A DNA stretch of 53,371 nt from an uncultured Caulobacteraceae bacterium (GTDB taxonomy: Bacteria; Pseudomonadota; Alphaproteobacteria; Caulobacterales; Aquidulcibacteraceae), in the NCBI GenBank assembly GCA_964642205.1, contig CAZXNY010000001.1:1-53371 (forward strand). The letters are read 5' to 3'. This document shows positions 3,835-39,894 of this stretch, one piece after another. A program made the position numbers and the translations under genes. Under the pieces are notes generated by a model. That model was not told the DNA's origin, did not search any database, and worked only from the letters and a program-made list of their open reading frames with translations. How positions within the stretch are numbered: the stretch's first letter is position 1; each line of letters opens with the position of its first letter.

Positions 3835-4671
3835 ATGAAGATCGCCATCGTTGCGCCGGGCGTGCGCATCGAACCGGAGATGGCCGAAACGGTCCGGGCG
3901 ATCGCAGCGAAAGCATATGGCGCAGGCGCGCCGGAGCTTTACTTCCACCCGCAATGTTACCTCTCGTCCGGCCATTTCGCGGGCGACGATGCGGCGCGGC
4001 TGAAAGCGTTCGTCGATGTCGCCAACGATCCTGCGTTCGACGCAGTCTGGTTCGCACGCGGCGGCTACGGCGCTTGCCGGATCGCGGAGAGCGCCATCGC
4101 CCAGCTGAGCCCGATTGCACGGCGCAAGACGTATCTCGGGTACAGCGACGCAGGCGCACTGCTCGGCGGGCTGTATCGTGCCGGATTCCCGCACGTCGCG
4201 CACGGACCGATGCCAGTCGAGGTGATCCGCGAGGGCGGCGACGCGTGCGTGCTCCGCGCGCTGCGCTTCCTCGTGGAGCGCGCGCCAGACACGATCGAGC
4301 AGAGCGTTTCGAATGAAGCGCCGAGCGCTGCATTCAACATCATGATCCTGCAGCATATCCTGGGCACGCCGCTGGAGCCCGATCTCAGCGGCCACGTGCT
4401 GATGCTCGAAGAGGTCGGCGAATATCTCTATCGGATCGACCGGGCGCTCTTTCACATCACCTCAAGCGCGAATGTGCGGCGCGTGACGGGCATCCGCCTT
4501 GGGCGCTGCAGCGCCGTGCCGAAGAACGATCCGGACTTTGCCGCGACCGAGGAGGATGTGATCCAATACTGGTGCGAGCGCGCGGCAATCCCCTATTTGG
4601 GGCGCGCGGACATTGGGCACGATATCGAGAACAAGATCGCGCCATTTGGCCACTGGCCGCCCCGATCTTAA
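3835..4671 (+). CDS. LD-carboxypeptidase (peptidase S66, LdcA-like)
   Basis: 278 aa with the GYSDAGALL nucleophile-serine motif and a C-terminal GHD..N region typical of S66. AAGGTGA SD is upstream. Divergent from the Mpl-like gene. Confidence 0.8.
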
Positions 4672-25382: not shown

Positions 25383-26498
25383 ATGTCCGTGACACTCCTC
25401 GCCGTTGGCGATGTCGGCATTTGCCGCGCAAAGCCCGAAACGATGCTCGACGGCGTGCGCGATGCGCTGCGCCGAGGCGGCGTTGTGTTTGGCCAATTGG
25501 AGACCACCGTTTCCGAGCGCGGCGCGCGCGCGCCGCACGCCAAACTCGCGATGCGCTCGCCGCCTGCAATGCTGCGCGCGTGCGCGAAAGCCGGCTTCGA
25601 TGCGATGTCGTTCGCAGGCAACCATTGTATGGATTGGGGGCGCGAGGCGTTCGATGACACGTTCGCGCATGCGCACGCGGCGAACATAGCGCTGTGCGGC
25701 GCGGGCGAGACACTCGCCGAGGCGCGTGCGCCGGTGGTGGTTGCGAAGAACAGCGTGCGCATCGCGTTCGTCGCGGTGAGTTCGATCTTGCCGGATGGGT
25801 ATTGGGCTGAGGCGCAGCGGCCCGGCTGCGCGCCGATGCGCGCGTTCACGCATTACGAGATGATCGAGCACGATCAGCCGGGCACGCCGCCACGCATTCA
25901 CACGACACCGCATCCAGGCGATCTAAGGCGCTTGCGCGAAGACATCGGCGCAGCGCGCGCGATGGCGGACGTCGTTGTGCTCTCGATCCATTGGGGCATT
26001 CATCTCGTGCCGGCCGAAATCGCGGCCTATCAGCACGAGGTCGGGCGCGCCGCTATTGATGCGGGCGCCGATCTCGTGCTCGGGCACCATCCGCATATTC
26101 TGAAGGGCGTTTCGTTTCATCGCGGCAAGCCGATCTTCTTCAGCATGGGCAATTTCGCGATCGAGCAGCCGCAGGCTTGGGATCCGGCGATCCTGCAGCA
26201 TCACTCGTTCAAGCAGTTGATGGCGCTCAATCCGGATTTCGATTTGGAGAGCGCGTATCTCCTGCCGCCGGACACACGGCACACGATGATCGCACGTGCG
26301 GAGTTGAGCGCGGGCGGTGTCGCGGGCGTGTCGTTCCTGCCCTGTTGGATCAATGACCGGTCCGAGCCGCAACTCTTATCAGCCAGCGATCCGAAGTTCG
26401 ATGCAGTTGTCGCCTATATGCGCGCGATTACGGAAAGCCAGGGGCTCAACGCGCGCTATGTGGTTGAGGGCGGCGCAGTGCAGGTCCTGCCGCTTTAG
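25383..26498 (+). CDS. CapA/PgsA-like (PGA_cap, metallophosphatase-fold) family protein
   Basis: 371 aa. LLAVGDVG...FGQLETTV...SFAGNHCMDWG...VLSIHWG...DLVLGHHPH matches the CapA-family metal-ligand pattern. No SD is present in the 45 nt upstream. Confidence 0.75.
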   Translation: MSVTLLAVGDVGICRAKPETMLDGVRDALRRGGVVFGQLETTVSERGARAPHAKLAMRSPPAMLRACAKAGFDAMSFAGNHCMDWGREAFDDTFAHAHAANIALCGAGETLAEARAPVVVAKNSVRIAFVAVSSILPDGYWAEAQRPGCAPMRAFTHYEMIEHDQPGTPPRIHTTPHPGDLRRLREDIGAARAMADVVVLSIHWGIHLVPAEIAAYQHEVGRAAIDAGADLVLGHHPHILKGVSFHRGKPIFFSMGNFAIEQPQAWDPAILQHHSFKQLMALNPDFDLESAYLLPPDTRHTMIARAELSAGGVAGVSFLPCWINDRSEPQLLSASDPKFDAVVAYMRAITESQGLNARYVVEGGAVQVLPL

Positions 26499-29400
26499 TG
26501 GAAGTTACGCCCGCCCGGCATCGCAATCTCGATCCGCTGCGCCACCTCTTCCCGCACGCGCGAGCCCTGCGCGCCGCGCTTTCCTTCATCGATCTTGCTC
26601 GGCGGTTCAAGCGCATCGCCCCCGGTCGCGAGCAAACGCAGCAGCCGCGTCTCGTCACGCACGCGCTCGGCCACGACATGCACGACGCCGCTCTGGTTTT
26701 GCACACGCCCTTCGACCACAGCGAAGCGCGAACCGAGCACCTCGGCGCGAAACTTCTCGAACACGTTGGGCCAGACGATCGTGTTGGCGATATAAGTCTC
26801 GTCTTCCAGCGTCATGAAGATGACGCCCTTCGCCGTTCCCGGCCGCTGGCGCACCAGCACAAGACCACCGACGCGCACAAACGCGCCATCCGGCGCCGAC
26901 GCGAGATCCTCCGCGCGCATGATGCGGCGCGCATCGAGTTCGGGACGGAGCAACTTTGCCGGATGCGCTTTGAGCGAGAGCGACAGGCTCGCATAGTCCT
27001 CGACGATGTGTTCACCGATCGGCATGCGCGGGAGATTGTAATCCGGCTCGCGCGTCGGATCGAATTGCGGAGCGAACAACGGGAGATTTTCCTGTCCGCC
27101 GACGCGGCCAAGCCCTCGCGCGGCCCAAAGCGCAGCGCGCCGGTCGAGCCCAAGCGAGCGGAACGCATCGGCGTTCGCCAGCGTCTCGATCGCGGCGGGC
27201 GAAATGCCGCCGCGCAGCCAAAGATCGCGCACTGAATCGTAGCCCGCGCTGCGATTGGCGACGAGCTGGCGCATCTCCTCTTCGCTCAGCCCCTTGGCTT
27301 GCCGAAACCCGAGCCGGAGCGCGGCGGTGGTGCGTATATCCCCGCGCATATCGGCGTGGCGCTTATGCAGGTGCGTGGCGGCGGTGCGGCCATCGTCTTC
27401 GAGCGTGCAATCCCAGTCGGAGCGATTCACATCGACTTCACGCACCTCGACGCCATGATCTTGCGCGTCGCGGACGATCTGCGCGGGCGCGTAAAAGCCC
27501 ATTGGTTGCGCGTTGATAAGCGCGGCGGCGAATACGTCCGGGTAATGGCATTTGAGCCAGGACGAGACGTAAACCAGGATCGCGAAGCTCGCCGCGTGGC
27601 TTTCGGGGAAGCCATATTCGCCGAAGCCTTCGATCTGGCTAAAGCTGCGCTCGGCGAACTCCCGCTCGTAGCCTTTTGCGATCATGCCGTTGATGAACTT
27701 GTCTTTCAGCAAGCCGATGGTGCCGACGCGCTTGAACGTCGCCATCGCGCGGCGGAGCTTATCGGCTTCAGGCGCCGTGAAGCCGGCGGCCACGATGGCG
27801 ATCTGCATCGCCTGTTCCTGGAAGAGCGGCACGCCGAGCGTACGGTGGAGCACGCGTTCAAGCTCTTTGCTGGGATATGTGACCTTCTCGATGCCCTGCT
27901 TGCGCTTCAGATAGGGATGCACCATGCCGCCCTGAATTGGCCCCGGACGGACGATCGCGACTTCGATCACGAGATCGTAGAATTTCTCCGGCCGCAGGCG
28001 TGGCAGCATCGACATCTGCGCGCGGCTCTCGACTTGGAAGACACCGAGCGAATCCGCGCGCTTCAACATTTCGTAGACGCGGTCTTCCGTTGGCGGCAGC
28101 GCAGCGATCGAGAGCGGTTTTTCGTCTGGATAATGCGTCGCGACGAGGTCGAACGCTTTGCGGATGCAGGTGAGCATCCCCAGCCCCAGGAGATCGACCT
28201 TGAGGATCCCGAGCGCCTCCAGATCGTCCTTATTCCATTCCACCACAGTGCGATCGTCCATCGCGGCGTTCTGGATCGGCACGACATCGTCCAGCCGCTC
28301 GCGCGTGATGACGAAGCCCCCGACATGTTGTGAGAGGTGCCGTGGGAAGCCCTGCAGCTCACTCGCGAGCGCGAGGCACGCCATGAGCTTACGATCGGCT
28401 ATGTCGAGGCCGATCTCCGTCAGGTCTTCTTCCGTGACGTCCTTCGTCCACCAATGGAAAAGTTTGGCGAGCGAGCCTATGCGGTCTTCGGAATAGCCGA
28501 ACGCTTTGGCGACTTCGCGGATGGCGCTCCGGCCGCGATAGCAGATCAGCGTCGCCGCAAGCCCGGCGCGGTGGCGACCATAGGTGTGGTAGACATACTG
28601 GATCGCTTCTTCGCGCCGTTCATGCTCGAAATCGACATCGATATCCGGCGGCTCGTTGCGCTCGACAGAGAGGAAACGCTCGAACAGCAAATCGTTTTCC
28701 GCTGGATCGACGGCAGTCACCCCGAGGCAGTAACAGATCGTTGAGTTCGCCGCCGAGCCGCGGCCCTGGCAGAGGATCGGCGGCACGTCCTGCCCGTCGA
28801 TGGTCTTGCCGGACCGCGCGAAGCGCACGATGTCGTGCACCGTGAGAAAATACGGCGCATATTTGAGTTCGGCGACGATGCCGAGCTCATGCACGATCGC
28901 GGCGCGGACTTTGTCGGGCACGCCATCCGGGTAGCGTTCCGCGGCGCCTTTCCAGGTGAAGGCCTCGAGCGCTTCTTGTGGGGAGGCGAAACCGGCTTTG
29001 GTTTCTTCCGGATATTCGTAGCGCAGCTCATCCATTGAGAAGTTGAGCCCGTCCAGGAACCGCATCGTTTCGTCGACGGCGCCGGGCATGTCTTTGAAGA
29101 GGCGCGCGATCTCTCGCGGCTCCTTGAGGTGGCGCTCGGCATTTGCTTCGAGCAGCCGCCCGGCCGCGTCGAGCGTGGTTTTCTCGCGGATGCAGGTGAC
29201 GACATCGAGGAGCGGCTTGCGGTCAGCGGTATGAATGAGCGGCGCCGTCGTCGCGATCAGGCGCGCGCCGGATTGCGAAGCGATCTCCGCCAGCGCGCGG
29301 CGGCGGCGCGCATCGGCGCCATCATAAACGGTGGGCGCGGCGAGCCAGACGGCGCCCGCGTGCGCTGCGATCTCGCGCAGCAGCGGCGTGAGCCCGGCCG

Positions 29401-29788
29401 TTTCCGACCCGGGCACAACGATTGTCTGCATCCCCTCTGCGTGCGCGAGAAAATCTTCGCGCGTGAGGAAGCACTGCCCTTTCGGGGCGCGGCGGTTGCC
29501 GAGCGTGAGCAGCCGGCACATACGCGCATAGGCGGCGCGGTCCTTCGGGTAGATCAGAATGTCCGGCGTTTCGTCGGTGAACACGAGGCGCGTGCCGATC
29601 GCGAGCCGGAGCTTCTGCTCCTTCGCCATGACATGCGCGCGCACCACACCTGCGAGCGTGCAGCGATCGGCGACGCCGACGCCAGCGAGACCTAAGCGCT
29701 TGGCTTCCGCGACCATCTCATCGGGATGCGATGCGCCGCGCAGGAACGAAAAGTTCGTGGTGAGCGCGAGTTCTGCAAACGCCGTCAT
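26495..29788 (-). CDS. dnaE2: error-prone DNA polymerase III alpha-subunit paralogue DnaE2 (ImuC)
   Basis: Trimmed to the ATG at 29788 (MTAFAELALTTNFSFLRGASHPDEMV, the canonical PHP-domain start), giving 1097 aa. It lies immediately downstream of imuA-imuB. Confidence 0.92.
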   Translation of the reverse strand: MTAFAELALTTNFSFLRGASHPDEMVAEAKRLGLAGVGVADRCTLAGVVRAHVMAKEQKLRLAIGTRLVFTDETPDILIYPKDRAAYARMCRLLTLGNRRAPKGQCFLTREDFLAHAEGMQTIVVPGSETAGLTPLLREIAAHAGAVWLAAPTVYDGADARRRRALAEIASQSGARLIATTAPLIHTADRKPLLDVVTCIREKTTLDAAGRLLEANAERHLKEPREIARLFKDMPGAVDETMRFLDGLNFSMDELRYEYPEETKAGFASPQEALEAFTWKGAAERYPDGVPDKVRAAIVHELGIVAELKYAPYFLTVHDIVRFARSGKTIDGQDVPPILCQGRGSAANSTICYCLGVTAVDPAENDLLFERFLSVERNEPPDIDVDFEHERREEAIQYVYHTYGRHRAGLAATLICYRGRSAIREVAKAFGYSEDRIGSLAKLFHWWTKDVTEEDLTEIGLDIADRKLMACLALASELQGFPRHLSQHVGGFVITRERLDDVVPIQNAAMDDRTVVEWNKDDLEALGILKVDLLGLGMLTCIRKAFDLVATHYPDEKPLSIAALPPTEDRVYEMLKRADSLGVFQVESRAQMSMLPRLRPEKFYDLVIEVAIVRPGPIQGGMVHPYLKRKQGIEKVTYPSKELERVLHRTLGVPLFQEQAMQIAIVAAGFTAPEADKLRRAMATFKRVGTIGLLKDKFINGMIAKGYEREFAERSFSQIEGFGEYGFPESHAASFAILVYVSSWLKCHYPDVFAAALINAQPMGFYAPAQIVRDAQDHGVEVREVDVNRSDWDCTLEDDGRTAATHLHKRHADMRGDIRTTAALRLGFRQAKGLSEEEMRQLVANRSAGYDSVRDLWLRGGISPAAIETLANADAFRSLGLDRRAALWAARGLGRVGGQENLPLFAPQFDPTREPDYNLPRMPIGEHIVEDYASLSLSLKAHPAKLLRPELDARRIMRAEDLASAPDGAFVRVGGLVLVRQRPGTAKGVIFMTLEDETYIANTIVWPNVFEKFRAEVLGSRFAVVEGRVQNQSGVVHVVAERVRDETRLLRLLATGGDALEPPSKIDEGKRGAQGSRVREEVAQRIEIAMPGGRNFH

Positions 29789-29793
29789 CGCCG

Positions 29794-31326
29794 CTATCCG
29801 AAAAAGCCGTGGACGAACCACGCAGGCGTTGGCGTTTCGCGCGCATAGAGCCCTTCGCGAAAAATCCAGAACCGGGCGCCGGCGGCGTCTTCGACGTGGA
29901 AATAGTCTCGCGTGAGCCCGTCGCGCTCCCACCAATCGGGCGCGATGCGCTCTGGCCCCTCCGCGCGGACGACCTCGTGCTGCACGCGCCGCCAGCGGAA
30001 GCGGCGCGGCGGGCCATCGGGTGTTGCGGCGAGCGTTTCAATCGGCTCGGGGCGCGCGAGCAATTTGAGTGGACGTGCGCGCGCGGGCGGCGCATGCGCG
30101 GCGGGCGCTTCGGTGAGCGCTGGCGTGCTGGCCGCGCCGCGCTCGGGCCAATGATGATCGGCGCACGCGACGCGGCGCACGTTCAGCGCGCCGAGGCGCG
30201 CGCTCAGCGCATCGATGAGGCGCGCATCGCCGGTATCGCCCTCGTCTTCGCCAAGGCGGCCGGTTTCCATAACGTCGAGCCGGATCGCTTCGACGCCGAA
30301 CTCGAACGTGCGGTCATCCTCGGCGGCGTTGAGCTGCTCGCGGAAAGCGCGCAGCAGCGCCTTCACTTGTGTTTCCGGGCGGCTGAAACCCGCTTCGAGG
30401 CGCCGGCGCGCGCCGGAAACGGCAAACAGATTGAGCGCCAAGCGCCGCGCGCCCACACCGCGCAGATCGAGCCCGGCGACGATCTCTTCGGCCGCATCTG
30501 CGGCGGCAATCATCAAGGCGTCCGCATGCACCAAAGGTTCGAGAAAACGGCGCAGTGCAAAGAGCGCCGGTGGCGGGCGGCGATAGACGAGCGCGGGCGG
30601 CGCGCGGCCGAGCGCTTCATCGAGGAGACGCTGCGCATCCTCGCCTGCGCGCGCAGCGAACGGCGCACGCGGCCGCGCGATCAGCGCGCCGATATGCGTG
30701 AGGCCAAGCCTATTCAGAAGCGCCTCGGCTGGAGGTGAAAGCCGCAGCGCGGCGATCGGGAGCGGCGCGAGATGCTCGACCGTTTCGCCCGGAGGCGCAT
30801 AGGGCGCGCGTGCAAACCGCGCGAGCGCCCACGCCGCGCCCGGCGTATCGGCAAGCGCGACGCGGGCGGAAAACCCGCCCGCTTCGATGCGCCGGGTTAT
30901 CTCTTCCCGGAGCGCCGCCTCGCCGCCAAAGAGATGCGCCGTCGCGCCGATTTCAAGCAGAACGCCATCGGGGGGCGAGAGCACGACGCCCGGCGTCCAG
31001 CGTTCGCAAAACGCCGCGAGCCGATTTAGCAACGCGCTATCGGCCATCGCATCCGCTTCGACAGCAACAAGTGCGGGGCGGATCGCGCGCGCATCCGCGA
31101 GCGTCATGCCGGTGGCGAGACCGTTGGCGCGTGCGCGTGCATCGACCGCGTCGAGCACGAAGGCGGCGCCTGCGCGCGCATAGGTGGCAAGCCCATCATC
31201 CGACGGCGCGGCGGCGCCCGTCTTGATCAGCCGATCCGTTGACAGTCGCCGGAGCCAAATCGCCGCCCAACGCTTCGTTGCTGCTGGCGGCGCTTCGCGA
31301 TTCTGCGATGCGGAAACCGTCATCAC
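29794..31326 (-). CDS. imuB: ImuB, Y-family polymerase-like protein of the imuA-imuB-dnaE2 cassette
   Basis: 510 aa. KRWAAIWLRRLSTDRL is the typical ImuB N-terminus. Starts are GTG at 31326 or ATG at 31323. The stop lies 5 nt before the dnaE2 start. Confidence 0.85.
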   Translation of the reverse strand: MMTVSASQNREAPPAATKRWAAIWLRRLSTDRLIKTGAAAPSDDGLATYARAGAAFVLDAVDARARANGLATGMTLADARAIRPALVAVEADAMADSALLNRLAAFCERWTPGVVLSPPDGVLLEIGATAHLFGGEAALREEITRRIEAGGFSARVALADTPGAAWALARFARAPYAPPGETVEHLAPLPIAALRLSPPAEALLNRLGLTHIGALIARPRAPFAARAGEDAQRLLDEALGRAPPALVYRRPPPALFALRRFLEPLVHADALMIAAADAAEEIVAGLDLRGVGARRLALNLFAVSGARRRLEAGFSRPETQVKALLRAFREQLNAAEDDRTFEFGVEAIRLDVMETGRLGEDEGDTGDARLIDALSARLGALNVRRVACADHHWPERGAASTPALTEAPAAHAPPARARPLKLLARPEPIETLAATPDGPPRRFRWRRVQHEVVRAEGPERIAPDWWERDGLTRDYFHVEDAAGARFWIFREGLYARETPTPAWFVHGFFG

Positions 31327-31990
31327 TCCACTCCAAATCGAGCGTGCGCGGGCGCACGCCAGCGCGGTGGCGCATCAATTCCGCCGTAAGCGACGGCGCG
31401 CCGATTTCGTCGCGATGCGGCGTGCGGGACGGCGCGGGCGCGATGCGCCAGCGCGTCCACGCCGAACTCGTCGGCGCCGCGCGCATGAACTCCGGGCGCC
31501 CGCAATCGCCGCGCAGGATGAGCGCGGAAGCGCCATGCGCTTCGGCTGCAAGGCTGAGCCGGCGCGTGGCCGTGAGATCGATGGGCTTGCCGCGCGCGCC
31601 CAACTCCAAGAGCACGCGCACGCCGGGGCGCTTGAGGGCCTCTTCGGCCGCCCAGAGCGCCTCCACACGCTTCTGCGCGCGGACCAGCAGAATGCTGGCC
31701 GGATCCGCGAGCGCCGAGAAACCGGGCGCGTAAAGCTCACCATGTTCAGCGCTGGCGGCCGCTTCGCGCACCCACACCGTCCACCGCGCAGGGCTCGAAG
31801 CGCCGAGCAAGAAAAAGAGCGCCGTCCCCTCACCGCCCCAGGCCGGAAAAGCTTCATGCACCCGGCCTGCAGCGAGCCGGGGCAACGAGGCGCCCGTGGC
31901 CAAATCCCAAGAAAAATCCTCCGCTTGCGAGCGCAGGGCCCGCTCAGCGGAGGCTGCCCCAAAGGGCAAGACAGGCAGGGAGGCCGACAT
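31196..31990 (-). CDS. imuA: ImuA (RecA/SulA-fold SOS protein)
   Basis: 264 aa, first gene of the cassette, directly preceded by a LexA box. VHEAFP...GTALFFLL and LLELGARGKPIDLTATRRLSLAAEAHGASALILR resemble the ImuA family. The 3' 131 nt overlap imuB. Confidence 0.75.
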   Translation of the reverse strand: MSASLPVLPFGAASAERALRSQAEDFSWDLATGASLPRLAAGRVHEAFPAWGGEGTALFFLLGASSPARWTVWVREAAASAEHGELYAPGFSALADPASILLVRAQKRVEALWAAEEALKRPGVRVLLELGARGKPIDLTATRRLSLAAEAHGASALILRGDCGRPEFMRAAPTSSAWTRWRIAPAPSRTPHRDEIGAPSLTAELMRHRAGVRPRTLDLEWSDDGFRIAESRSAASSNEALGGDLAPATVNGSADQDGRRRAVG

Positions 31991-31991
31991 T

Positions 31992-32006
31992 GTTCTACTT
32001 TTGTTC
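31992..32006 (-). promoter_or_regulatory. alphaproteobacterial-type LexA (SOS) box, GTTC-N7-GTTC (GAAC-N7-GAAC on the gene strand)
   Basis: Plus strand is GTTCTACTTTTGTTC, and the box ends 1 nt from the imuA ATG. On the gene strand the layout is TTGACT (32025..32020), a 17-nt spacer, AAAAGT (32002..31997), then 6 nt and the ATG. Confidence 0.8.
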
Positions 32007-32021
32007 TAGTCGGCTGTAAAG

Positions 32022-32534
32022 TCAATCCGTTTCCGAATTGTTCCTCTGCTCGTTTTCCGCTTCGCGCACCTTCGGCTTGGCGAGCCGCTTCACGAACCAG
32101 TCTTCTACCGGCTGGCCGAGAACCAGGATCGCGAGGGTCAGCGCAACAGCCCACGCAACCAGCGTCCATTCGCCGAGGCCGCAGGCGATGCCGACAGCCG
32201 CTGTCACCCACACGGTCGCCGCGGTCGTCAGGTTCTTCACATCGTTGTTGTCCGCGCGCCGCACGATCACACCGGCGCCAAGAAAGCCGACGCCCGTGAG
32301 CACGCCCTGCAGCACCCCTTGAACGACGCGGCTGCGTGCATCGGGATGCGGGCCGATCAGCGGATCGCCGATCGCGGCGAGCGCGACGATGGCGGCGCCG
32401 ACGGAGACAAGACCGAGCGTGCGCGCGCCCATCGCTTTGCCGGCGATGTCGCGGTTGAGGCCGATCACCATGCCGGCGAGCGCCGCGGCCGCGAGCCGCA
32501 AGCCGGGCTCAGCGAACGCAGCGAAGGCTTCCAT
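32022..32534 (-). CDS. MgtC/SapB-family integral membrane protein (membrane domain only)
   Basis: Trimmed to the ATG at 32534, which overlaps the stop of the upstream GH130-like gene (ATGA). 170 aa. GMVIGLNRDIAGKAMGARTLGLVSVGAA matches the MgtC-family motif, with 4-5 TM segments. Confidence 0.8.
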   Translation of the reverse strand: MEAFAAFAEPGLRLAAAALAGMVIGLNRDIAGKAMGARTLGLVSVGAAIVALAAIGDPLIGPHPDARSRVVQGVLQGVLTGVGFLGAGVIVRRADNNDVKNLTTAATVWVTAAVGIACGLGEWTLVAWAVALTLAILVLGQPVEDWFVKRLAKPKVREAENEQRNNSETD

Positions 32535-33811
32535 CACACCATGCTCTCCACCAAGCCCTTCAGCGGGATGGTGCAGAAAGCCACGGAAGAATCCGCGACG
32601 CCATAGGGCATGAAGAGAAAGCCGTTCGTCGCGAGCGCGCCGCATGTGTAGACGACATTCGGCACGTAACCTTCGCGGCTTTCATCGGACGGACGCAACA
32701 ACGGCAGACGTGTGCGTCCAAGCACTTTGCGCGGATTTTCCTTATCGAGCAGCGCAGCGCCAATCGAATATTGACGCATGGCGCCGACCCCATGCGTCAG
32801 CAACAGCCAACCTTCATCGATCTCGATCGGCGCGCCGCAATTGCCTATTTGAATGCGCTCCCACGCGAAACGCGGCGTCATCACGCGCTCGCCCTCGTCC
32901 CAATTCAGGAGATCGTCGGACTCCAAGAAGTAGAGGTTCTCATTGTCTTGCCGGCCGATCACGGCGTAACGTCCGCCGATGCGGCGCGGGAAGAGCGCCA
33001 TGCCTTTGCTCGCGGCGGCGCGGCCGCGCATGGCGCGCAAACGGAACGTGCGGAAATCTTCCGTACTCAAAAGCTCGGACGCGATGTCGGCGCCGCTATA
33101 GGCGGTGTAGGTGCCGTAATAGATTGGCCTCTCACCCGGCTCAGCGAAGCGCACGAGGCGGAGATCTTCAAGCCCGTTGCGCTGCTGACGCGTGAACGGG
33201 AAAATCACACTGCCGGAGAGCGTCGCGTTCTCATCGCGCGAGACGCGGAAATCCTTCTCGTCGATCGCCTTCTTGCCGATGCCGTTGACGGCCATCGCGA
33301 ACGGCGGCTCGACCAGCAAGCTCATCGTGCCGTTGGCGTAGAGAATGCCTTCGCGAAACGCGATTGAGGAAATGTGCCCCTCACCGACCGTGCGCAGCGA
33401 CAGCACGAAGCGCACATCGCCCGGCTGGAGGCCCGTCTGATCGGGATGCGGCACGATGCTGGGGTTCATGATCGCCGCGGCGGCGTAGGAATATTCATGA
33501 CAGAACGAAGCGCCGATCAGCTCTTGCTTGGCCGCGCTGATATGCGCGGGGTTGAGGCCAAGCTCGATCGCGACGTGGCGAAAGCGTTCAAGGTAGATGC
33601 CCTGCGTCTGCCAATGGCGACCGTCGAAGTCATGATCGACAAGCGCATTCTCTTCATCGCACTCCCCATCGCTGAGCGCGAGGACGGCATCGACAATGCG
33701 GCGCGTGCGGTTTGGCTTGGTGGGATCGCTCGCTGCAATATGCAGCGGCCGGATCACCACGCGCGCGGGATCGGCCGTCAGCCTGATGGGCAGCGTGGTG
33801 ATTTCGACCAA
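32534..33811 (-). CDS. GH130-like (beta-mannoside phosphorylase/hydrolase fold) protein with an extra N-terminal domain of about 190 aa
   Basis: 425 aa. The C-terminal ~230 aa show GH130-style blocks (EDLRLVRF, YYGTYTAYSG, KGMALFPRRIGGRYAVIGR, WERIQIGNCGAPIEIDEGWLLLTHGV, YSIGAALLDKENPRKVLGR, VPNVVYTCG, FMPYGVADS). Apparent TTG start at 33811 with GGAG upstream. No signal peptide. Confidence 0.75.
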   Translation of the reverse strand: MVEITTLPIRLTADPARVVIRPLHIAASDPTKPNRTRRIVDAVLALSDGECDEENALVDHDFDGRHWQTQGIYLERFRHVAIELGLNPAHISAAKQELIGASFCHEYSYAAAAIMNPSIVPHPDQTGLQPGDVRFVLSLRTVGEGHISSIAFREGILYANGTMSLLVEPPFAMAVNGIGKKAIDEKDFRVSRDENATLSGSVIFPFTRQQRNGLEDLRLVRFAEPGERPIYYGTYTAYSGADIASELLSTEDFRTFRLRAMRGRAAASKGMALFPRRIGGRYAVIGRQDNENLYFLESDDLLNWDEGERVMTPRFAWERIQIGNCGAPIEIDEGWLLLTHGVGAMRQYSIGAALLDKENPRKVLGRTRLPLLRPSDESREGYVPNVVYTCGALATNGFLFMPYGVADSSVAFCTIPLKGLVESMV

Positions 33812-33824
33812 GAGCCGCTCCGCG

Positions 33825-36149
33825 TCAGCGCGTCAGTGTATCGTTCGCCGGTTCGCGCTTGGCCGCACGCACCAGCTTATGCATGGACAGAAGCGCCTGC
33901 TGAAACGCAAGCACGGATTCAGCGCCGCGGTTCAAGTTCGGCCCGCCCCGGCCGAGCCCATCGTAGCAATCGCCGGTCTTCGGATCGGCGAGCGGCCGTG
34001 CGAGATCGTTTTCGCCCAAGAACCAATCGAACGCGCGATGCGCTTCGCCAATCCAGCGCGCATCGCCATCGAGCGCGTACGCTGCCGCGCACGCTTCGAC
34101 CGCCGCGAGCGCTTCGAGCGGCTGCTGGTCGAAAGGCGAAGGCTCCGCGTAGGGCTTGCCGAAACTCTCCGAACCCACGGCGCGGAAGACCCCGCCAGCG
34201 CCGGTGTGCTTGGCGCAGAGCCAAGCGAGCGCCGCACGGCCCGCTTCGGCGTACCGGTCTTCCTTGAGGACAAGCGCGGCGCGGAGCAAGGCTTCCGGCA
34301 GGCGCGCATTGTCGTAACCCAACGTCGGCTCGAACCACGTCCAACCCGCGCGTTGCTCCAACGCAAACTGGGTGGCGAGATACGCAGCGCTCGCGGCGAG
34401 CGTCTCGCGCGCAAATCCATGATCCGGGCGCTTCTCCAGAAACGCCGCGCAAGCGAGCGCGACGAACGCGCGCGTGCGCAGTGGCGTGAGCTTGGCGGCA
34501 TGTGGCAGCGCGCGCTCAAACAACGCTGCCGCCCACTGCGCGTAGTCCTCACCAAGCGCGCCTTGCGCCGCGACGGCAAGCGAGAGCAGCGCGCGGCCGA
34601 AACTGTCGCACGAACCGCGCTCTTCCAGCCAGCGCCGATCGAAGCTCATGAAGTTGCGAAAACAGCCATGATCCTCGTTCCACGCATGTTGAATGAACGC
34701 GGCGTAAGCGCCGGCGCGCTCACTTGCGCGATCCGCCTCTGCGCCGGCCGCACACGCTTCAGCCATCAGCATCAGCGCGCGAGCGTTATCGTCGGTGCAA
34801 TAGCCGTGGCGGCGGTCTGGCACGCAGAAGACGCCATGCTGTAAAATGCCAGTGGAATCGCTCATGCGAAACACAGCGTCCAAGCGCGGGCGCGGCAACA
34901 CGCGCGGCGCTGGCGCCGGCATGCGGCGATCTTCGGCGCGCGCGAGCGAAAAATACTGAAGATACGAATCCGCCGAGCGCGACCATGTCGTTGCGCGGCC
35001 AGCGGCGTAGGCGTTTGCACGGATTTCGTCACGGCGGCGATCGTCCGTCAACAACGCGACGATTTCCCTCGCGAGCGCTTCGCTATCTCCGAATGGAGTC
35101 AGCACGCCGCGATCATCTGCGAGCAGTTCAGCCGCATGCCAGTAAGGCGTGGAGACCACAGGCTTGCCGAGCGCGACCGCGTAAGCCAGCGTCCCGGACG
35201 TCGCCTGCGCCTCATTGAGATAGGGCGTGACGTAGACATCGCACGCCGAGAGATAGCCGAGCAGCATGTCGGTATCGACGTAGGCGTTGAGGAAAAGCAC
35301 GTTGTCGGCGACGCCCAACTCCTCCGCGAGCTTGGCCAGCCCCTCCCGGTACGCCTCGCCGTTTTCGGCAACGATGTTTGGGTGCGTGGCGCCCAGGATC
35401 ACGTAAAGCGCGTTCGGGCGCGCGGCGACAACGCGCGGCAAAGCGCGGATCATTACGTCGATCCCCTTGCCGGGCGACAGGAGGCCGAACGTCAACAGCA
35501 CGTCGCGCTGCGAGAGGCCGAGGGCGGCTTTGTGCGCTGTGCTTTCGGTGAACGGCCGGTCGGGCGCGCCGTGCGGCGCGACGGCGATCTTGCGTGAGGG
35601 CACGTCGTACACGTCCATCAGGATGCGCCGCCCGCGTTCGGACATCACAACCAGACGATGCGAGCGCGCGATCAGCCGCTGCATCACGCGGCGCTGGTCC
35701 GGGTTCGGAGCCGAGAGCACAGTATGGAGCGTGGTGACGACGGGCTTAGGGAGCTTTTCGAGGAAGATCAGCAGATGTGCGCCGGCCGGCCCGCCGAAGA
35801 TGCCGAACTCATGCTGGATCGAGACAACGTCAGCGCTTGAAGCGTTGATGCGCGCGGCGGCCTCGGCGTAGGCGGCCGGATCGTCCGCTGGGATCGCCAT
35901 TGCAACGTCGGGCGGATAGGCGTGGCCGCGGCCATCATCCATCGCGTAGATCGCCGCCTTCATGCGCGGCTCGGCCGTCTTCAGAGCAATGTAAAGATCG
36001 CTGGTGAAGGTCGCGATGCCACAGCGGCGCGGGGGGAAGTTCCCGAGGATCGCCAACGACATGACTTGCGGAACGACCTGCGGCGCGGCCAAGCGGAGGG
36101 GCGCGGGCGTGCGAGCCGGAGCCGCTTTGGCGTTTGCCAGGTCGAGCAT
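33825..36149 (-). CDS. GT4 (GT-B) glycosyltransferase fused to a C-terminal all-alpha, (alpha/alpha)6-barrel-like domain of about 350 aa
   Basis: LAILGNFPPRRCGIATFTSDL plus a later EAQATSGTLAYAVALGKPVVSTP region is typical of group-1 glycosyltransferases. The C-terminal half is helical-repeat-like (GYCTDDNARALMLM ... LGYDNARLPEALL ... NRGAESVLAFQQALL). Start chosen at the ATG at 36149 (GAAGGA SD). GTG 36194 and ATG 36062 are alternatives. Confidence 0.75.
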   Translation of the reverse strand: MLDLANAKAAPARTPAPLRLAAPQVVPQVMSLAILGNFPPRRCGIATFTSDLYIALKTAEPRMKAAIYAMDDGRGHAYPPDVAMAIPADDPAAYAEAAARINASSADVVSIQHEFGIFGGPAGAHLLIFLEKLPKPVVTTLHTVLSAPNPDQRRVMQRLIARSHRLVVMSERGRRILMDVYDVPSRKIAVAPHGAPDRPFTESTAHKAALGLSQRDVLLTFGLLSPGKGIDVMIRALPRVVAARPNALYVILGATHPNIVAENGEAYREGLAKLAEELGVADNVLFLNAYVDTDMLLGYLSACDVYVTPYLNEAQATSGTLAYAVALGKPVVSTPYWHAAELLADDRGVLTPFGDSEALAREIVALLTDDRRRDEIRANAYAAGRATTWSRSADSYLQYFSLARAEDRRMPAPAPRVLPRPRLDAVFRMSDSTGILQHGVFCVPDRRHGYCTDDNARALMLMAEACAAGAEADRASERAGAYAAFIQHAWNEDHGCFRNFMSFDRRWLEERGSCDSFGRALLSLAVAAQGALGEDYAQWAAALFERALPHAAKLTPLRTRAFVALACAAFLEKRPDHGFARETLAASAAYLATQFALEQRAGWTWFEPTLGYDNARLPEALLRAALVLKEDRYAEAGRAALAWLCAKHTGAGGVFRAVGSESFGKPYAEPSPFDQQPLEALAAVEACAAAYALDGDARWIGEAHRAFDWFLGENDLARPLADPKTGDCYDGLGRGGPNLNRGAESVLAFQQALLSMHKLVRAAKREPANDTLTR

Positions 36150-36235
36150 GGGCGATCCTTCGTGCTGCGGGGCTATCCACCTTTCCCAACGCACGACGGC
36201 GCTCTTCGGCGCCGCACAAAAATACCGGGAACACG

Positions 36236-36261
36236 AAAAAGGGCGCGCCGCGGCGCGCCCT
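36236..36261 (-). terminator. Rho-independent terminator of the upstream receptor gene
   Basis: 22-nt perfect palindrome AGGGCGCGCCGCGGCGCGCCCT (36240..36261), followed on the minus strand by TTTTT (36236..36240). It lies 24 nt after the stop at 36285. Confidence 0.75.
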
Positions 36262-36284: not shown

Positions 36285-38525
36285 TTAGCGCCGGTAGGCG
36301 ACCCGCACGCCGAACGTGCGCGGCAGACCAGGCGCCGCGATGGGCGTCACGTCAGCAGCGGCGAAGAAGTTCCGCGTCTCGTGATATTCCTCGTCGAGGA
36401 GGTTGCGGCCCCACAGGCCGAACTCCCACGGGCCGTCCGTCGGTCGGACCGAGACGTTGGCGTTGACGAGCCAATAGTCCGGCACGCCGTACCCCTCGCC
36501 GAACGTCGGCTTCAGGAGCGGCGGATCAGTCTCGCCGCGATAGGCGTAATCGACCGAGCCGGACCATTCCCAATTGGCGCCGACCGCCCGTTGGTAAGCG
36601 AGCGAGCCATTGTAAGTGAGCTCCGGCGGGCCCAGACGCTCGCCGTTGGCGTTGCGGCCGACGGGCGTGCCCGAGGCGTTGCTCGCGGCGATGTCGAGGA
36701 TGAGGAAGTCCTCATCGAATTCGCCGTTCTGATAGCCGATCGCCTGCGTGATCGTCAGCGCATCGATCGGGCGCCACACGAGTTCGAGTTCGGCGCCATA
36801 GATGCGGCTCGAAGGCGCGTTGGTGATGCGGCCAACGGCGGCGTTGTTGGCCGCGATGAAGAGCGCGTTCTGCACCTGCTGGTCGGTGTAGTCGTAGTAG
36901 AAGAGCGCGCCGTTAAGCCGCAGCGTGCGATCGATCAGCTCGCTCTTGAACCCGACTTCGTACGCGACGAGCACTTCAGGATCGAACGCGTCGACCGCAT
37001 CAGGGCTGAATGAATTGTACGCGGTGAAGCCGCCCGATTTCACGCCGCGGCTGATCGAGGCGTAGTACAGCAGATCGTCCGTCGGCGTCCATTCCAGCGC
37101 GACGCGGCCGGAGACCTCCTGCATCTCCGTGGTGTTGTTTTGCAGCGGAATGACCGCACCGCCGGCAAAGTTCGTCGTGAAATCGACGAGGCGGCGCTCT
37201 TCATCCTCGTAGCGGATGCCGGCGACGAGGTTGAGCGTCGGCGCGACCTGGTACTCGATCTGTGCGAACACCGCAGCGGTATCGACCTCCTGCGAATACG
37301 GCGTCGAGAGCGACGCGATCGGGCCGAAGCTGTCGCCGAAATCCGACTCGTAATTGTCGGTCAGTTCCTCGTCGCCGAAATAGACGCCGACGATCCAATC
37401 GAACGCGTTATCGCCGTTCGAAGCGAGGCGGATTTCATTCTGGAAGACGCTGGCTTCGCTCGTGAACAGCGTGCCGGCCACCGCGAGCGGCAGCGCGTCC
37501 CAATCGTTGAGCTCGCGGCGATCAAGGTGCTCGTGGCTGAGGATGTAGGTGAGCGTCGCGCCGCCGAAATCGTAGCGCGTCGTCAGGCTCGCGCCGGCGC
37601 CTTCATTGTCGCGGAAAGGCGCGGTGTTTTGCGCCAGGCCCGTCTGCGCCGCGAACGCGGGCGAAAACCCCCAGCTTGTCTGATCATGCTCATGCGCGAG
37701 CGTGGCCGGGATCACCGGCAGGCCCGGGCCGCCGGGCGCAGGCGTCGCCGGCAGGTTCTTGAAGAGGATGAGCCCCAAGCCGTCTGATTGATCGCGGAAA
37801 CCGTGCAGGTTCAGGAGGAACTCGAGATTGTCCGTCGCGGGCAGCAGGAACTGGCCGCGCAGCGCGATGCGATCAGCGTCGCCAAGCTCGGCGCCGGTTT
37901 CGCGGTTGGTTTGCCAGGCGCCGCCTTGCGCGAACGCGCCGGAGATGCGCGCCGCAGCGCCGCCGCCGAGCGCCCAGTTCACATAGCCTTCGCCGCGCAC
38001 CGCATCGTAATTGCCGTACTCGGCGTTGAAGCCGGCCGCGAATTCATCGCGTGGCCGTGCGCTGATCACGTTGATCGCGCCGCCCGTCGTGTTGCGCCCA
38101 TAGAGCGTGCCTTGCGGGCCGCGTAGAACTTCGACGCGCTCGACATCGAACAGAACGCCCTGCGTCATGATCGGCAGCGTGTAAGCGACTTCATCGACAT
38201 AGACGCCGACCGTCGGCGCATTGTTCGAGGCGTAGTCCCGAAACCCGACGCCGCGCAGCGAATAAGACGGCTGGCCGCCGCCGAACTGGCTTTCGACTTC
38301 AAGGCTCGGCGCAAGGTTCTCAAGCCCGTTGACGGTCGTCACGCCCTGCTCGAGCAATTGCTGGCCGGAGAGCACGGACACAGCGAGACCAACGTCCTGC
38401 ACGTTCTGCTCGCGCCGCTGCGCGGTGACGATGATCTCCGTCCCGTCCGCATCCTGCGCGTAGGCAAAGCCGCCGCTGGTGCACGCAATCGCCGCAACCG
38501 CGACGGACAACAAAAGCCGCTTCAT
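36285..38525 (-). CDS. TonB-dependent receptor
   Basis: 746 aa. Signal peptide MKRLLLSVAVAAIACTSGGFAYAQ, plug motifs (IIVTAQRREQNVQDVGLAVSVLSG, VEVLRGPQGTLYGRNTTGGAINV) and a long beta-barrel. GAGGGG SD is upstream. Confidence 0.9.
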   Translation of the reverse strand: MKRLLLSVAVAAIACTSGGFAYAQDADGTEIIVTAQRREQNVQDVGLAVSVLSGQQLLEQGVTTVNGLENLAPSLEVESQFGGGQPSYSLRGVGFRDYASNNAPTVGVYVDEVAYTLPIMTQGVLFDVERVEVLRGPQGTLYGRNTTGGAINVISARPRDEFAAGFNAEYGNYDAVRGEGYVNWALGGGAAARISGAFAQGGAWQTNRETGAELGDADRIALRGQFLLPATDNLEFLLNLHGFRDQSDGLGLILFKNLPATPAPGGPGLPVIPATLAHEHDQTSWGFSPAFAAQTGLAQNTAPFRDNEGAGASLTTRYDFGGATLTYILSHEHLDRRELNDWDALPLAVAGTLFTSEASVFQNEIRLASNGDNAFDWIVGVYFGDEELTDNYESDFGDSFGPIASLSTPYSQEVDTAAVFAQIEYQVAPTLNLVAGIRYEDEERRLVDFTTNFAGGAVIPLQNNTTEMQEVSGRVALEWTPTDDLLYYASISRGVKSGGFTAYNSFSPDAVDAFDPEVLVAYEVGFKSELIDRTLRLNGALFYYDYTDQQVQNALFIAANNAAVGRITNAPSSRIYGAELELVWRPIDALTITQAIGYQNGEFDEDFLILDIAASNASGTPVGRNANGERLGPPELTYNGSLAYQRAVGANWEWSGSVDYAYRGETDPPLLKPTFGEGYGVPDYWLVNANVSVRPTDGPWEFGLWGRNLLDEEYHETRNFFAAADVTPIAAPGLPRTFGVRVAYRR

Positions 38526-38571
38526 CCTAAGCCCCTCGCATTCTGCGCTGGCCGCATATTGGCCGGGTTCG

Positions 38572-39894
38572 CTACGCCACGTCTCTTAAGACGTTCTCAA
38601 TGGTGGAAAAGGTTTCATCGAGTTCATCGGCCGTCCCGTTCAGGAACGGTGCAAATTGCAACACGTCGCCGCCGTTGCGAACCATTAGCCCTGCTTCGAA
38701 CGCGCGCACATGCGTTTCAAAACCACGCGCGCCAGGCGAACCGGCGCGCGGCGCCAGTTCAATCGCGCCCATGAGCCCGAAATTGCGGATGTCGATCACG
38801 TTCGGCGCGTTCCGTAGCTGGTGGATCCGTTCCTCAAAGGCAGGCTCTAACGCGCGTGCGCCGTCGAACGAATTCTCCTCTGAGTAGATTTCGAGCGTCG
38901 CGATCGCCGCGGCCACGGCGGCCGGATGGCCCGAATAAGTGTAGCCGTGGAAAAACTCGATCGCGTGTGGCGGGCCCTGCATGAAGGCATCGTAGATTTC
39001 TTGGCGCGCGATCACCGCGCCCATCGGGATGACGCCGTTGGTGAGGCCCTTCGCCGTGCAGATGAGATCGGGCGTCACACCGAAACGCTGCGCAGCAAAT
39101 GGCGCGCCCACGCGCCCGAAGCCCGTGATTACCTCGTCGAAGATCAGCAGAACGTCGTGCGCATCGCAGAGCGCGCGCAGCCGTTCAAGGTAGCCTTTCG
39201 GCGGCGGGATGACGCCCGTCGATCCCGCGACGGGCTCGACGATCACGGCCGCGATGCTATCTGCGCCATGCACACGCACGTGATGCTCAAGTGCGTCCGC
39301 GAGTTCCGCGCCATGCTCTGGCAGACCGCGCGAGAACGCGTTGCGCTTGAGATCGAGCGTGGCGGGCAGGTGTGACACGTTCGGCAGCAACCCGCCGGCA
39401 TAGACGCCGCGGTTTGCCAAGATGCCGCCAACGGAAATGCCGCCGAAGTTCACGCCGTGATAACCGCGCTCACGCCCGATCAGCCGCTTCTTCTGCGGCT
39501 TGCCGCGCGCGTGCTGATAGGCGAGCGCGATCTTGAGCGCGGTCTCGACCGCCTCCGAACCTGAGTTGGTGAAAAACGCGCGCGTCATGCTGTTCGGCGC
39601 GAGCGCCGTCAGGCGCGTCGCAAGATCGAAGGCGCCGGGGTGGCCGATCTGAAACGCCGGCGCATAATCCAGTGTCTCAAGCTGGCGGCGCACCGCTTCG
39701 ATGATTTCTGGCCGGCCGTGCCCGACGCCCGTGGTCCAAAGGCCGGAGAAAGCATCCAGCACGCGCGCGCCATCTGGCGTCCGGTACTCGTGGCCGGAGG
39801 CGGACGCGACCAGGCGCGGCGCATCCTTGAAAGCGCGGTTGGCGGTGAAGGGCATCCAATAGGCGTCAAAGCCCAGCGTGTTGCGGCGATCCAT
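38572..39894 (-). CDS. class III (omega) aminotransferase, beta-alanine:pyruvate transaminase-like
   Basis: 440 aa. YWMPFTANRAFKDAPRLVASASGHEY...FSGLWTTGVGHGRPEI and FDEVITGFGRVG match remembered omega-transaminases. Confidence 0.85.
   Translation of the reverse strand: MDRRNTLGFDAYWMPFTANRAFKDAPRLVASASGHEYRTPDGARVLDAFSGLWTTGVGHGRPEIIEAVRRQLETLDYAPAFQIGHPGAFDLATRLTALAPNSMTRAFFTNSGSEAVETALKIALAYQHARGKPQKKRLIGRERGYHGVNFGGISVGGILANRGVYAGGLLPNVSHLPATLDLKRNAFSRGLPEHGAELADALEHHVRVHGADSIAAVIVEPVAGSTGVIPPPKGYLERLRALCDAHDVLLIFDEVITGFGRVGAPFAAQRFGVTPDLICTAKGLTNGVIPMGAVIARQEIYDAFMQGPPHAIEFFHGYTYSGHPAAVAAAIATLEIYSEENSFDGARALEPAFEERIHQLRNAPNVIDIRNFGLMGAIELAPRAGSPGARGFETHVRAFEAGLMVRNGGDVLQFAPFLNGTADELDETFSTIENVLRDVA

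Follow-up and report, generated by a model that had tools for sequence, protein, structure and literature searches.

A conserved two-gene carbohydrate module is encoded on the minus strand of a 53,371-nucleotide stretch of DNA from an uncultured Caulobacteraceae bacterium (contig CAZXNY010000001.1, assembly GCA_964642205.1), referred to here in its entirety as the window. Gene 1 encodes a GT4-type glycosyltransferase fused to an (α/α)6-barrel domain, and gene 2 (the long GH130) encodes a five-bladed β-propeller of the phosphorylase type that sits behind a family-specific N-terminal extension. The pair is a cytoplasmic carbohydrate module widespread in Alphaproteobacteria, and it, rather than the three-gene operon proposed in an initial annotation of the window, is the unit kept across genomes. 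The reading we favor, tentatively and at slightly less than an even chance, is that, in connection with stress, the pair may synthesise an intracellular mannoside and turn it over in a phosphate-dependent manner. Genes in the window were called as minus-strand open reading frames, and domains as Pfam matches above the gathering cut-offs. The pair comprises the following features.

33825..36149, minus strand: gene 1, the GT4 fusion, 774 aa (open reading frame, Pfam; kept in 82 of 82 loci)
34923..36062, minus strand: GT4-type glycosyltransferase domain of gene 1 (Pfam), whose conserved core begins at MSLAILGNFPPRRCG
33828..34922, minus strand: (α/α)6-barrel domain of gene 1, ~365 aa (AlphaFold2 model, Foldseek, profile)
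32534..33811, minus strand: gene 2, the long GH130, 425 aa, with a TTG start (open reading frame, Pfam, PDB relatives)
33482..33811, minus strand: N-terminal extension of gene 2, ~110 aa, mainly helical (alignment, AlphaFold2 model)

We surveyed one genome per species with a profile of the barrel domain, which confirmed at least 596 loci, of which the best 80 were kept. A comparison of 82 loci that included these 80, with domain order read by tblastn, revealed the GT4 domain, the barrel, the GH130 extension, and the GH130 propeller in that order and on one strand in 81 cases; the GT4-barrel fusion itself is present in every locus. The same pairing recurs in four further loci found via the GH130 protein. 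Pair-bearing loci come from Sphingomonadales, Caulobacterales, and Rhizobiales, and homologues of the long GH130 at ~60% identity, spanning its full length, occur in Caulobacterales, Terricaulis, Hyphomonadaceae, and unclassified Alphaproteobacteria. The proposal that a glycosyltransferase and a phosphorylase-type GH130 work as a unit, first made from the window alone, is thus borne out by genes that are adjacent and co-directional in 81/82 loci, separated by a median gap of ~44 nt. The flanking genes differ by lineage and are unrelated to sugar metabolism (QueF, a photolyase-related protein, MscS, an OPT transporter, HerA), so the pair is self-contained; no sugar-metabolism neighbor recurs across the 80 genome loci and the loci inspected singly.

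Two further observations concern individual loci. The pair also lies on a 540-kb contig (L080, JBNOAI010000002.1) whose label is Leptospira interrogans strain LS0056, at 49–58% identity, the same range as in Sphingomonas loci, which suggests that this assembly is contaminated or mislabelled. Besides the pair, four Sphingobium loci have another GH130 gene, which is divergent. In L018 (4472..5668, 398 aa, Pfam 9e-17), L040, and L066, it sits directly upstream of the fusion on the same strand; in L007, it lies downstream and on the opposite strand.

The catalytic propeller of gene 2 matches Glyco_hydro_130 (PF04041) over residues 202–422 of 425, with 107 bits (cut-off 26) and an E-value of 1.2e-30. 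Its best PDB match is the β-1,2-mannobiose phosphorylase 7fip (2.5e-31, 35% identity over 201 aa), and the β-1,2-oligomannan phosphorylase 9fj8 (5e-31) and Lin0857 (5b0p) are also among the best solved relatives. Six residues, E215, D216, K269, R287, H340, and Y348, are invariant in 68/68 family members. Specifically, E215-D216 aligns with the Glu-Asp pair that includes the catalytic Asp (acid) of 7fip, 9fj8, and 5b0p, K269 aligns with the Lys that sets β-1,2 specificity, and R287, H340, and Y348 fall on phosphate-site positions that are basic or Tyr in solved GH130 phosphorylases. The β-mannosidases of GH130 carry Glu in place of the basic phosphate-binding residues (PMC4599007, PMC7660257), and the rule for β-1,2 specificity is a Glu beside the catalytic Asp together with a Lys at the Arg150 position, in UhgbMP numbering (PMC7660257, PMC4599007). 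The choice between phosphorylase and hydrolase, which the initial annotation had left to these signature residues, falls by sequence to the phosphorylase type, with the catalytic Asp and the basic residues all invariant. Given the E/K pair, the long GH130 is probably a β-1,2-mannoside enzyme.

The N-terminal extension of gene 2 is shorter than originally thought: about 190 residues had been described as unplaced, and the alignments reduce this to ~110–125. The Pfam match starts at residue 202 but already at profile position 87, and residue 27 of 9fj8 aligns with residue 151 of the long GH130; with homology to GH130 extending as far as about residue 125, the extension measures ~110 aa. It contains a series of invariant polar residues (R10, R21, R35, R38, D61, F62, R65, H66, W67, Q68, and R76) and an invariant run from L98 to S108. 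The AlphaFold2 model has a mean pLDDT of 77, rising to 83–97 in the core, with helices at residues 35–44, 48–84, and 93–102. No Pfam or NCBIfam family matches the extension at lax thresholds, and Foldseek found no matching fold in the PDB (best E = 2). Homologues fall into 139 representative clusters, N-terminal in all clear matches, and the longest of these proteins have ~400–430 aa; three long proteins give weak partial matches only. The extension thus appears, by sequence, to be specific to this GH130 subfamily.

Matches to GT4 families in gene 1 are confined to the N-terminal half of the protein. Both Glycos_transf_1 (74.7 bits, cut-off 26.4, 8.6e-21) and Glyco_transf_4 (44.1 bits, cut-off 28.5, 3e-11) exceed their gathering scores, which upholds the earlier GT4 assignment, and the best PDB matches are MshA and PimB' (~1e-10 to 1e-11). 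Every score of the fusion against the NCBIfam GT4-type equivalogs lies far under the cut-off. Residue counts over the columns of the 82 fusion proteins revealed that the two glutamates of the EX7E motif are not conserved; their places are taken by invariant Q315 and Y323, and position 313 is Pro in 57 of the proteins. The Arg of the GRLxxxKG motif is an invariant Leu (L223), and the Lys is retained (K228). Other invariant residues of the domain are H113, E114, H142, H193, H256, H338, and E341. Because neither the EX7E Glu nor the donor-phosphate Arg is conserved, the donor site is predicted to be atypical.

This donor site bears on a rather unlikely alternative, in which the substrate is not a mannoside or carries another linkage, the GT4 domain is possibly a retaining phosphorylase or a non-Leloir transferase, and the pair makes an unrecognised glycoside. 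Known phosphorylases do occur in GT4 (PMC7660257), and the loss of the two donor-site signatures alongside so many other invariant residues speaks for this alternative. The GH130 extension also has no counterpart in characterised enzymes, and the barrel family is uncharacterised. The propeller, however, argues for a mannoside: its −1 subsite, phosphate-site residues, and Glu/Lys pair match those of β-1,2-mannoside phosphorylases exactly, and every characterised GH130 acts on β-mannosides (PMC7660257).

The C-terminal half of gene 1 had been described as an all-α, barrel-like domain, and structure prediction agrees. The AlphaFold2 model is confident (pLDDT 93, pTM 0.92) and folds twelve helices into an (α/α)6 barrel, for which Foldseek retrieves six-hairpin sugar enzymes. 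The domain carries the conserved motifs HGYCxDDNARAL, RNFMxFDRxW, YDNARLP, FDQQPLEA, and NxNxGAES, and has 1541 homologues, mostly fused to GT4. Scans of Pfam and NCBIfam gave no match for it even when relaxed to E ≤ 10 or E ≤ 1, so that the barrel and the GH130 extension both remain without a family, in line with the initial annotation's view of them as unplaced regions. The top Foldseek match is 7tem, the Yersinia pestis protein YPO2471 (E = 1e-11, TM-score 0.72–0.77). AGE-type epimerases and isomerases come next (5zig, 3wkf, 3gt5, 5x32, 2gz6; TM-score 0.63–0.72, 11–17% identity), and GH9 and GH76 rank after them. Assignments to GH63, GH15, or GH100 were rejected, none of these families appearing among the 50 Foldseek matches listed.

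YPO2471 is also the only sequence-level PDB relative of the barrel, matched by its profile at E = 3.9e-13. The two have in common the motifs DDxARA, FxNF, YxN, FDG, and NxNxGAES; unlike the barrel, YPO2471 is a standalone protein, annotated as a 'putative exported protein' by structural genomics. Its aligned C-terminal fragment has no Pfam family, and a literature search found no paper on it. Because its function is uncharacterised, YPO2471 gives no functional transfer to the barrel. In AGE epimerases, a catalytic His pair is expected in the mid and C-terminal helices. The invariant residues of the barrel are mostly Asp, Glu, Asn, Arg, and Trp, its only invariant His are H29 and H39, near the N-terminus, and there is no match to the GlcNAc 2-epimerase Pfam family at E ≤ 10. 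Mapping the His by sequence position, we infer that the barrel is probably not a canonical AGE epimerase.

The link to stress comes from the region upstream of gene 1. We scanned the 300 nt upstream of gene 1 for the motif G[GC]AAC-N15-18-[CG]GTT, the form in which promoters of EcfG, the general-stress sigma factor, are listed for S. melonis (PMC6599016). It is present in 37/82 loci versus 1/82 on the opposite strand of the same regions, over a background of 2.9% per 430-nt window. Of 39 motifs, 33 have a 16-nt spacer, and GCAACCA...CGTT is the commonest form. Eight more loci have the motif with one mismatch, six of them ~88–89 nt from the core. Thus, in many Sphingomonadaceae, the predicted promoter of the pair has the form recognised by EcfG. 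Ahead of the GH130 gene, the motif stays at background level (5/81 loci), which makes the pair bicistronic, and the fusion and long GH130 genes are accordingly predicted to be transcribed together.

Gene neighborhoods add to this link, and expression data from S. melonis provide a lead. In two loci, L001 (10460..14021) and L002 (9322..12866), the pair lies ~2–3 kb from phyR-nepR-ecfG, separated from it by three small genes (DUF3618, a Phage_holin_3_6-like gene, and one without a family match). A Sphingobium locus (L018) has a PAS-HisKA kinase/receiver and a HisKA_2/HWE kinase downstream of the pair. In the regulon data for S. melonis Fr1, the adjacent genes Sphme2DRAFT_1750–1752 ('Glycosyltransferase', 'Glycosidases', and 'Predicted glycosylase' of COG2152/GH130) are strongly EcfG-dependent, with log2 changes of −3.8, −3.4, and −2.5, and a second 'Predicted glycosylase', 0743, is weakly so, with a non-GT gene on its 0742 side (PMC6599016). 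On the strength of these entries, GH130-type genes belong to a measured general stress regulon.

In the window itself, the upstream region contains two elements.

36187..36213, minus strand: gene 1 promoter region (also kept in the relative L083)
36236..36261, minus strand: intrinsic terminator of the upstream TonB-dependent receptor gene (folding)

The promoter region consists of the palindrome GGCGCCGAAGAGCGCC (36213..36198) and then GTGCGTTG, whose CGTT resembles an EcfG −10 element. Both are kept in L083 (about 4540..4580), a relative whose DNA is 82% identical over 7 kb, and GTGCGTTG is also found in L084, a relative with 72% protein identity. The palindrome stands where Sphingomonadaceae have the GCAAC/GGAAC −35 element. 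It may serve as an operator or form an RNA hairpin, overlapping the −10-like element. A scan found no sigma-70 consensus upstream of gene 1, although the same scan missed the strong terminator confirmed by folding. The open reading frame of gene 1 extends back to a GTG at 36194; the ATG at 36149, preceded by GAAGGA in a context kept in L083, is the likely start.

The terminator reads GGGCGCGC-CGCG-GCGCGCCC followed by TTTTT. The strong upstream terminator noted in the initial annotation is real by folding: the hairpin at 36260..36241 with its T-run has a free energy of −30.5 kcal/mol (z = −3.55). This element ends the TonB-dependent receptor gene and sets the 5' boundary of the transcription unit. 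Upstream of it, the window carries the receptor (746 aa) and a 440-aa open reading frame (38572..39894), both on the minus strand within 36285..39894. The same positions in L083 are occupied by an Aminotran_3 gene and a TonB-dependent receptor, an arrangement not seen in more distant loci.

A receptor in this position recalls catabolic salvage, in which the pair would degrade imported β-mannosides, such as fungal or plant mannan fragments taken up via the TonB-dependent receptor, with GH130 releasing mannose 1-phosphate. The barrel resembles AGE enzymes, and an AGE-fold epimerase with a GH130 is a pairing of mannan catabolism. The receptor gene lies just upstream in both the window and L083 and is divergent in L001, and the characterised GH130 phosphorylases are mostly catabolic (PMC7660257, PMC4599007). 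We nevertheless consider salvage quite improbable. Between the receptor and the pair lies the strong terminator, the recurrent neighbors in the 80 genome loci do not include the receptor, and genes for a sugar transporter, kinase, phosphomannomutase, or isomerase are not linked to the pair. Pure catabolism is hard to square with an obligate fusion partner of the glycosyltransferase type, the promoter motif is of a stress type rather than a substrate-induced type, and, by sequence position, the barrel has no invariant His in the regions where the AGE pair is expected.

The N-terminal sequences of the three proteins agree with the initial annotation's statement that none has a signal peptide. 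On inspection by eye, the two conserved proteins show no obvious signal peptide or membrane segment, which bears on another alternative, namely envelope remodelling. Here, the GT4 domain would glycosylate a lipid, lipopolysaccharide, exopolysaccharide, or protein at the inner membrane face, and GH130 and the barrel would edit the glycan under stress. Envelope glycans are the usual products of GT4 enzymes, the closest solved relatives here are the lipid mannosyltransferases PimB'/PimA along with MshA, and general stress regulons include envelope functions (PMC6599016). This alternative is nonetheless unlikely: the apparently soluble proteins count against it, as do the lack of a linked flippase, polymerase, polyprenyl-phosphate transferase, or other polysaccharide gene in the loci examined and the need of a phosphorylase-type GH130 for cytoplasmic phosphate (PMC7660257).

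In the favored reading, stress-linked turnover of an intracellular mannoside, a cell under stress would build, and later recover, an oligosaccharide or glycoside that contains mannose and stays inside the cell. The GT4 domain would make an α-linked primer or acceptor. GH130 would then reversibly add or remove β-linked, probably β-1,2, mannose (mannose 1-phosphate + acceptor ↔ mannoside + inorganic phosphate), and the barrel would bind, isomerise, or trim the glycan. The suggestion of the initial annotation that a cytoplasmic glycoside is made and then recovered stays plausible, refined by the predicted link to the general stress response and by the atypical donor-site signature of the GT4 domain.

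Several points weigh against this scheme. Because GT4 enzymes are retaining and the substrates of GH130 enzymes are β-mannosides, the bond made by the one cannot be the bond broken by the other. The donor of the GT4 domain may not be a standard nucleotide sugar, or the domain may not be a conventional transferase, and the extension could change the acceptor site of GH130. Gene 2 misses the β-1,2-mannobiose phosphorylase equivalogs (145 vs 550 bits for NF050092 and 133 vs 450 for NF052550), and because these scores fall under the cut-offs, it should not be named as those enzymes. On the regulatory side, neither the window nor L083 has a canonical GGAAC or GCAAC −35 element ahead of gene 1, a scan of the whole window placed no EcfG motif in this promoter region, and about half of the 82 loci are without the EcfG-type motif, including loci from Caulobacterales metagenome-assembled genomes (L003, L006, L011, L073, and L074). 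The loci are also phylogenetically clustered, mostly in Sphingomonas, and the motif counts are not independent events. S. melonis 1750–1752 are only a possible match to this module: an additional 'Glycosidases' gene lies between the other two, and their promoter strings occur in none of the loci compared. Finally, the biochemical scheme as a whole is an inference.

A bolder form of the same idea, which we regard as doubtful, is that the general stress response of many Alphaproteobacteria includes making and recycling a so far unrecognised mannoside within the cell, either a mannogen-like β-1,2-mannooligosaccharide on an α-linked primer or a novel compatible solute. The parts of the module would then be a QX7Y variant of GT4, a new family of (α/α)6-barrel enzymes, and a subfamily of GH130 whose N-terminal domain is new.

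Downstream of the pair, two further features complete the locus.

32022..32534, minus strand: gene 3, an MgtC/SapB gene, 170 aa (open reading frame, Pfam MgtC)
31992..32006, minus strand: LexA (SOS) box of the imuA-imuB-dnaE2 cassette (direct reading)

The window has three tightly packed same-strand genes, as first described, and Pfam identifies them as GT4, GH130, and MgtC. The junction between genes 1 and 2 is also as reported: the stop TGA of the fusion (33827..33825) and the TTG start of GH130 at 33811 frame a 13-nt spacer that contains GGAG. This TTG start is credible because homologues span 100% of the 425-aa protein. The second junction needs correction. It had been given as ATGA, and it reads TGATG, the GH130 stop and the mgtC start having one base in common at 32534.

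Gene 3 matches Pfam MgtC with 107.7 bits (cut-off 31.4, 6.4e-31), the domain being matched over its full length. Like other members of the MgtC/SapB family, it has the membrane domain; it differs from them in lacking the C-terminal soluble domain of Salmonella-type MgtC, in scoring below the NCBIfam MgtC equivalogs (~70 bits vs cut-offs of 214 and 255), and in not being conserved with the pair. A tblastn search found an MgtC gene in 0/82 loci. Besides the window, it occurs only in L083, where the protein is 84% identical, the gene order is the same (receptor, fusion, GH130, mgtC), and the TGATG overlap is also present; it is absent from L084. The synteny of three genes implied by the initial annotation therefore fails in relatives, and mgtC is a recent, lineage-specific addition downstream of the conserved unit, with translational coupling.

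The overlap in the window and L083 suggests that mgtC is co-transcribed and translationally coupled in this lineage. It is also what speaks for a three-gene unit, in which the MgtC-like protein would work with both enzymes, for instance by tying the turnover of the glycoside to Mg2+/ATP homeostasis. That interpretation is very unlikely. The gene is missing from all 82 loci and from L084, which makes any coupling local and recent, and its product is a membrane domain alone, under the equivalog cut-offs. Because the three-gene unit is not conserved, the coupling to MgtC needs no general explanation.

The 3' boundary of the gene group is marked by the LexA box of imuA, and here the initial annotation, which placed an imuA SOS promoter downstream, was right. 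The box, GAAC-N7-GAAC, is of the alphaproteobacterial form, spans 32006..31992, and ends 1 nt ahead of the imuA ATG at 31990. A −35-like hexamer, TTGACT, overlaps the mgtC stop codon ahead of imuA. Given these two positions, imuA may be leaderless or start further downstream. No terminator was found in the 31-nt mgtC-imuA spacer by a scan that also missed the strong upstream terminator; with none between the two genes, read-through from mgtC into the SOS cassette is possible. The mutagenesis cassette occupies 26495..32017 on the minus strand and consists of imuA (31196..31990), imuB (29794..31326), and a probable dnaE2 (26495..29935, 1146 aa). ImuA and IMS-domain matches in Pfam/NCBIfam support the imuA and imuB calls.

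Each catalytic fold in the pair is known. What appears new is the combination: a GT4-barrel fusion obligately paired with a long GH130, two regions without a family, the QX7Y motif, and the predicted stress link. Literature searches on GH130 and stress response found no paper characterising the pair, searches on mannosylglucosylglycerate with GH130 returned none, and those on PH1107 gave nothing relevant. How Alphaproteobacteria regulate their general stress response is well mapped, and many of its effector genes have no assigned function. The pair is conserved in at least ~600 species-level genomes, often behind an EcfG-type promoter. If it does make a stress-protective or reserve mannoside, it would add a new carbohydrate pathway to the cytoplasm of bacteria that live in soil, in water, or in association with plants, would assign functions to two orphan protein domains, and could provide new phosphorylase and transferase tools for β-mannoside synthesis. 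The MgtC link, by contrast with the first reading of the window, is a local gene addition and not a general feature.

Comparison with known systems places each part of the module. Gene 1 has in common with the GT4 enzymes MshA, PimA/PimB', and the sucrose-phosphate and mannosylfructose-phosphate synthases a GT-B fold of two Rossmann domains, a Gly-rich N-terminal loop, and the Lys of GRLxxxKG; it differs in having QX7Y for EX7E, Leu for Arg, and a fused barrel. The long GH130 has the five-bladed propeller, catalytic residues, and β-1,2 Lys of the GH130 phosphorylases (Thermoanaerobacter Teth514_1788/1789, 7fip, 9fj8; Listeria Lin0857, 5b0p), and, like them, shows no signal peptide, as judged by eye. 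Unlike Teth514_1788/1789 and Lin0857, it carries the ~110-aa helical extension and is paired with a GT4-barrel fusion, not with catabolic genes. In mannan catabolism, cellobiose 2-epimerase of the AGE superfamily works with the GH130_1 mannosylglucose phosphorylase. That pair combines the same folds, an (α/α)6 barrel (TM-score ~0.7) and a GH130 phosphorylase, whereas the barrel described here is 11–17% identical and fused to a glycosyltransferase, and the GH130 signature is β-1,2, not β-1,4.

The closest concept is the mannogen of Leishmania, a cytoplasmic β-1,2-mannan reserve made and degraded by GT108 mannosyltransferase/phosphorylases acquired from bacteria (PMC10913872). If the mannogen-like form of our reading is correct, the module would be the bacterial counterpart of this buffer. 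The analogy is functional only, and the polymer on the bacterial side is hypothetical: the mannogen enzymes belong to another CAZy family, related to GH130, and have no GT4-barrel partner. Common to both would be propeller enzymes with a GH130-like active site that serve as a stress or metabolic buffer.

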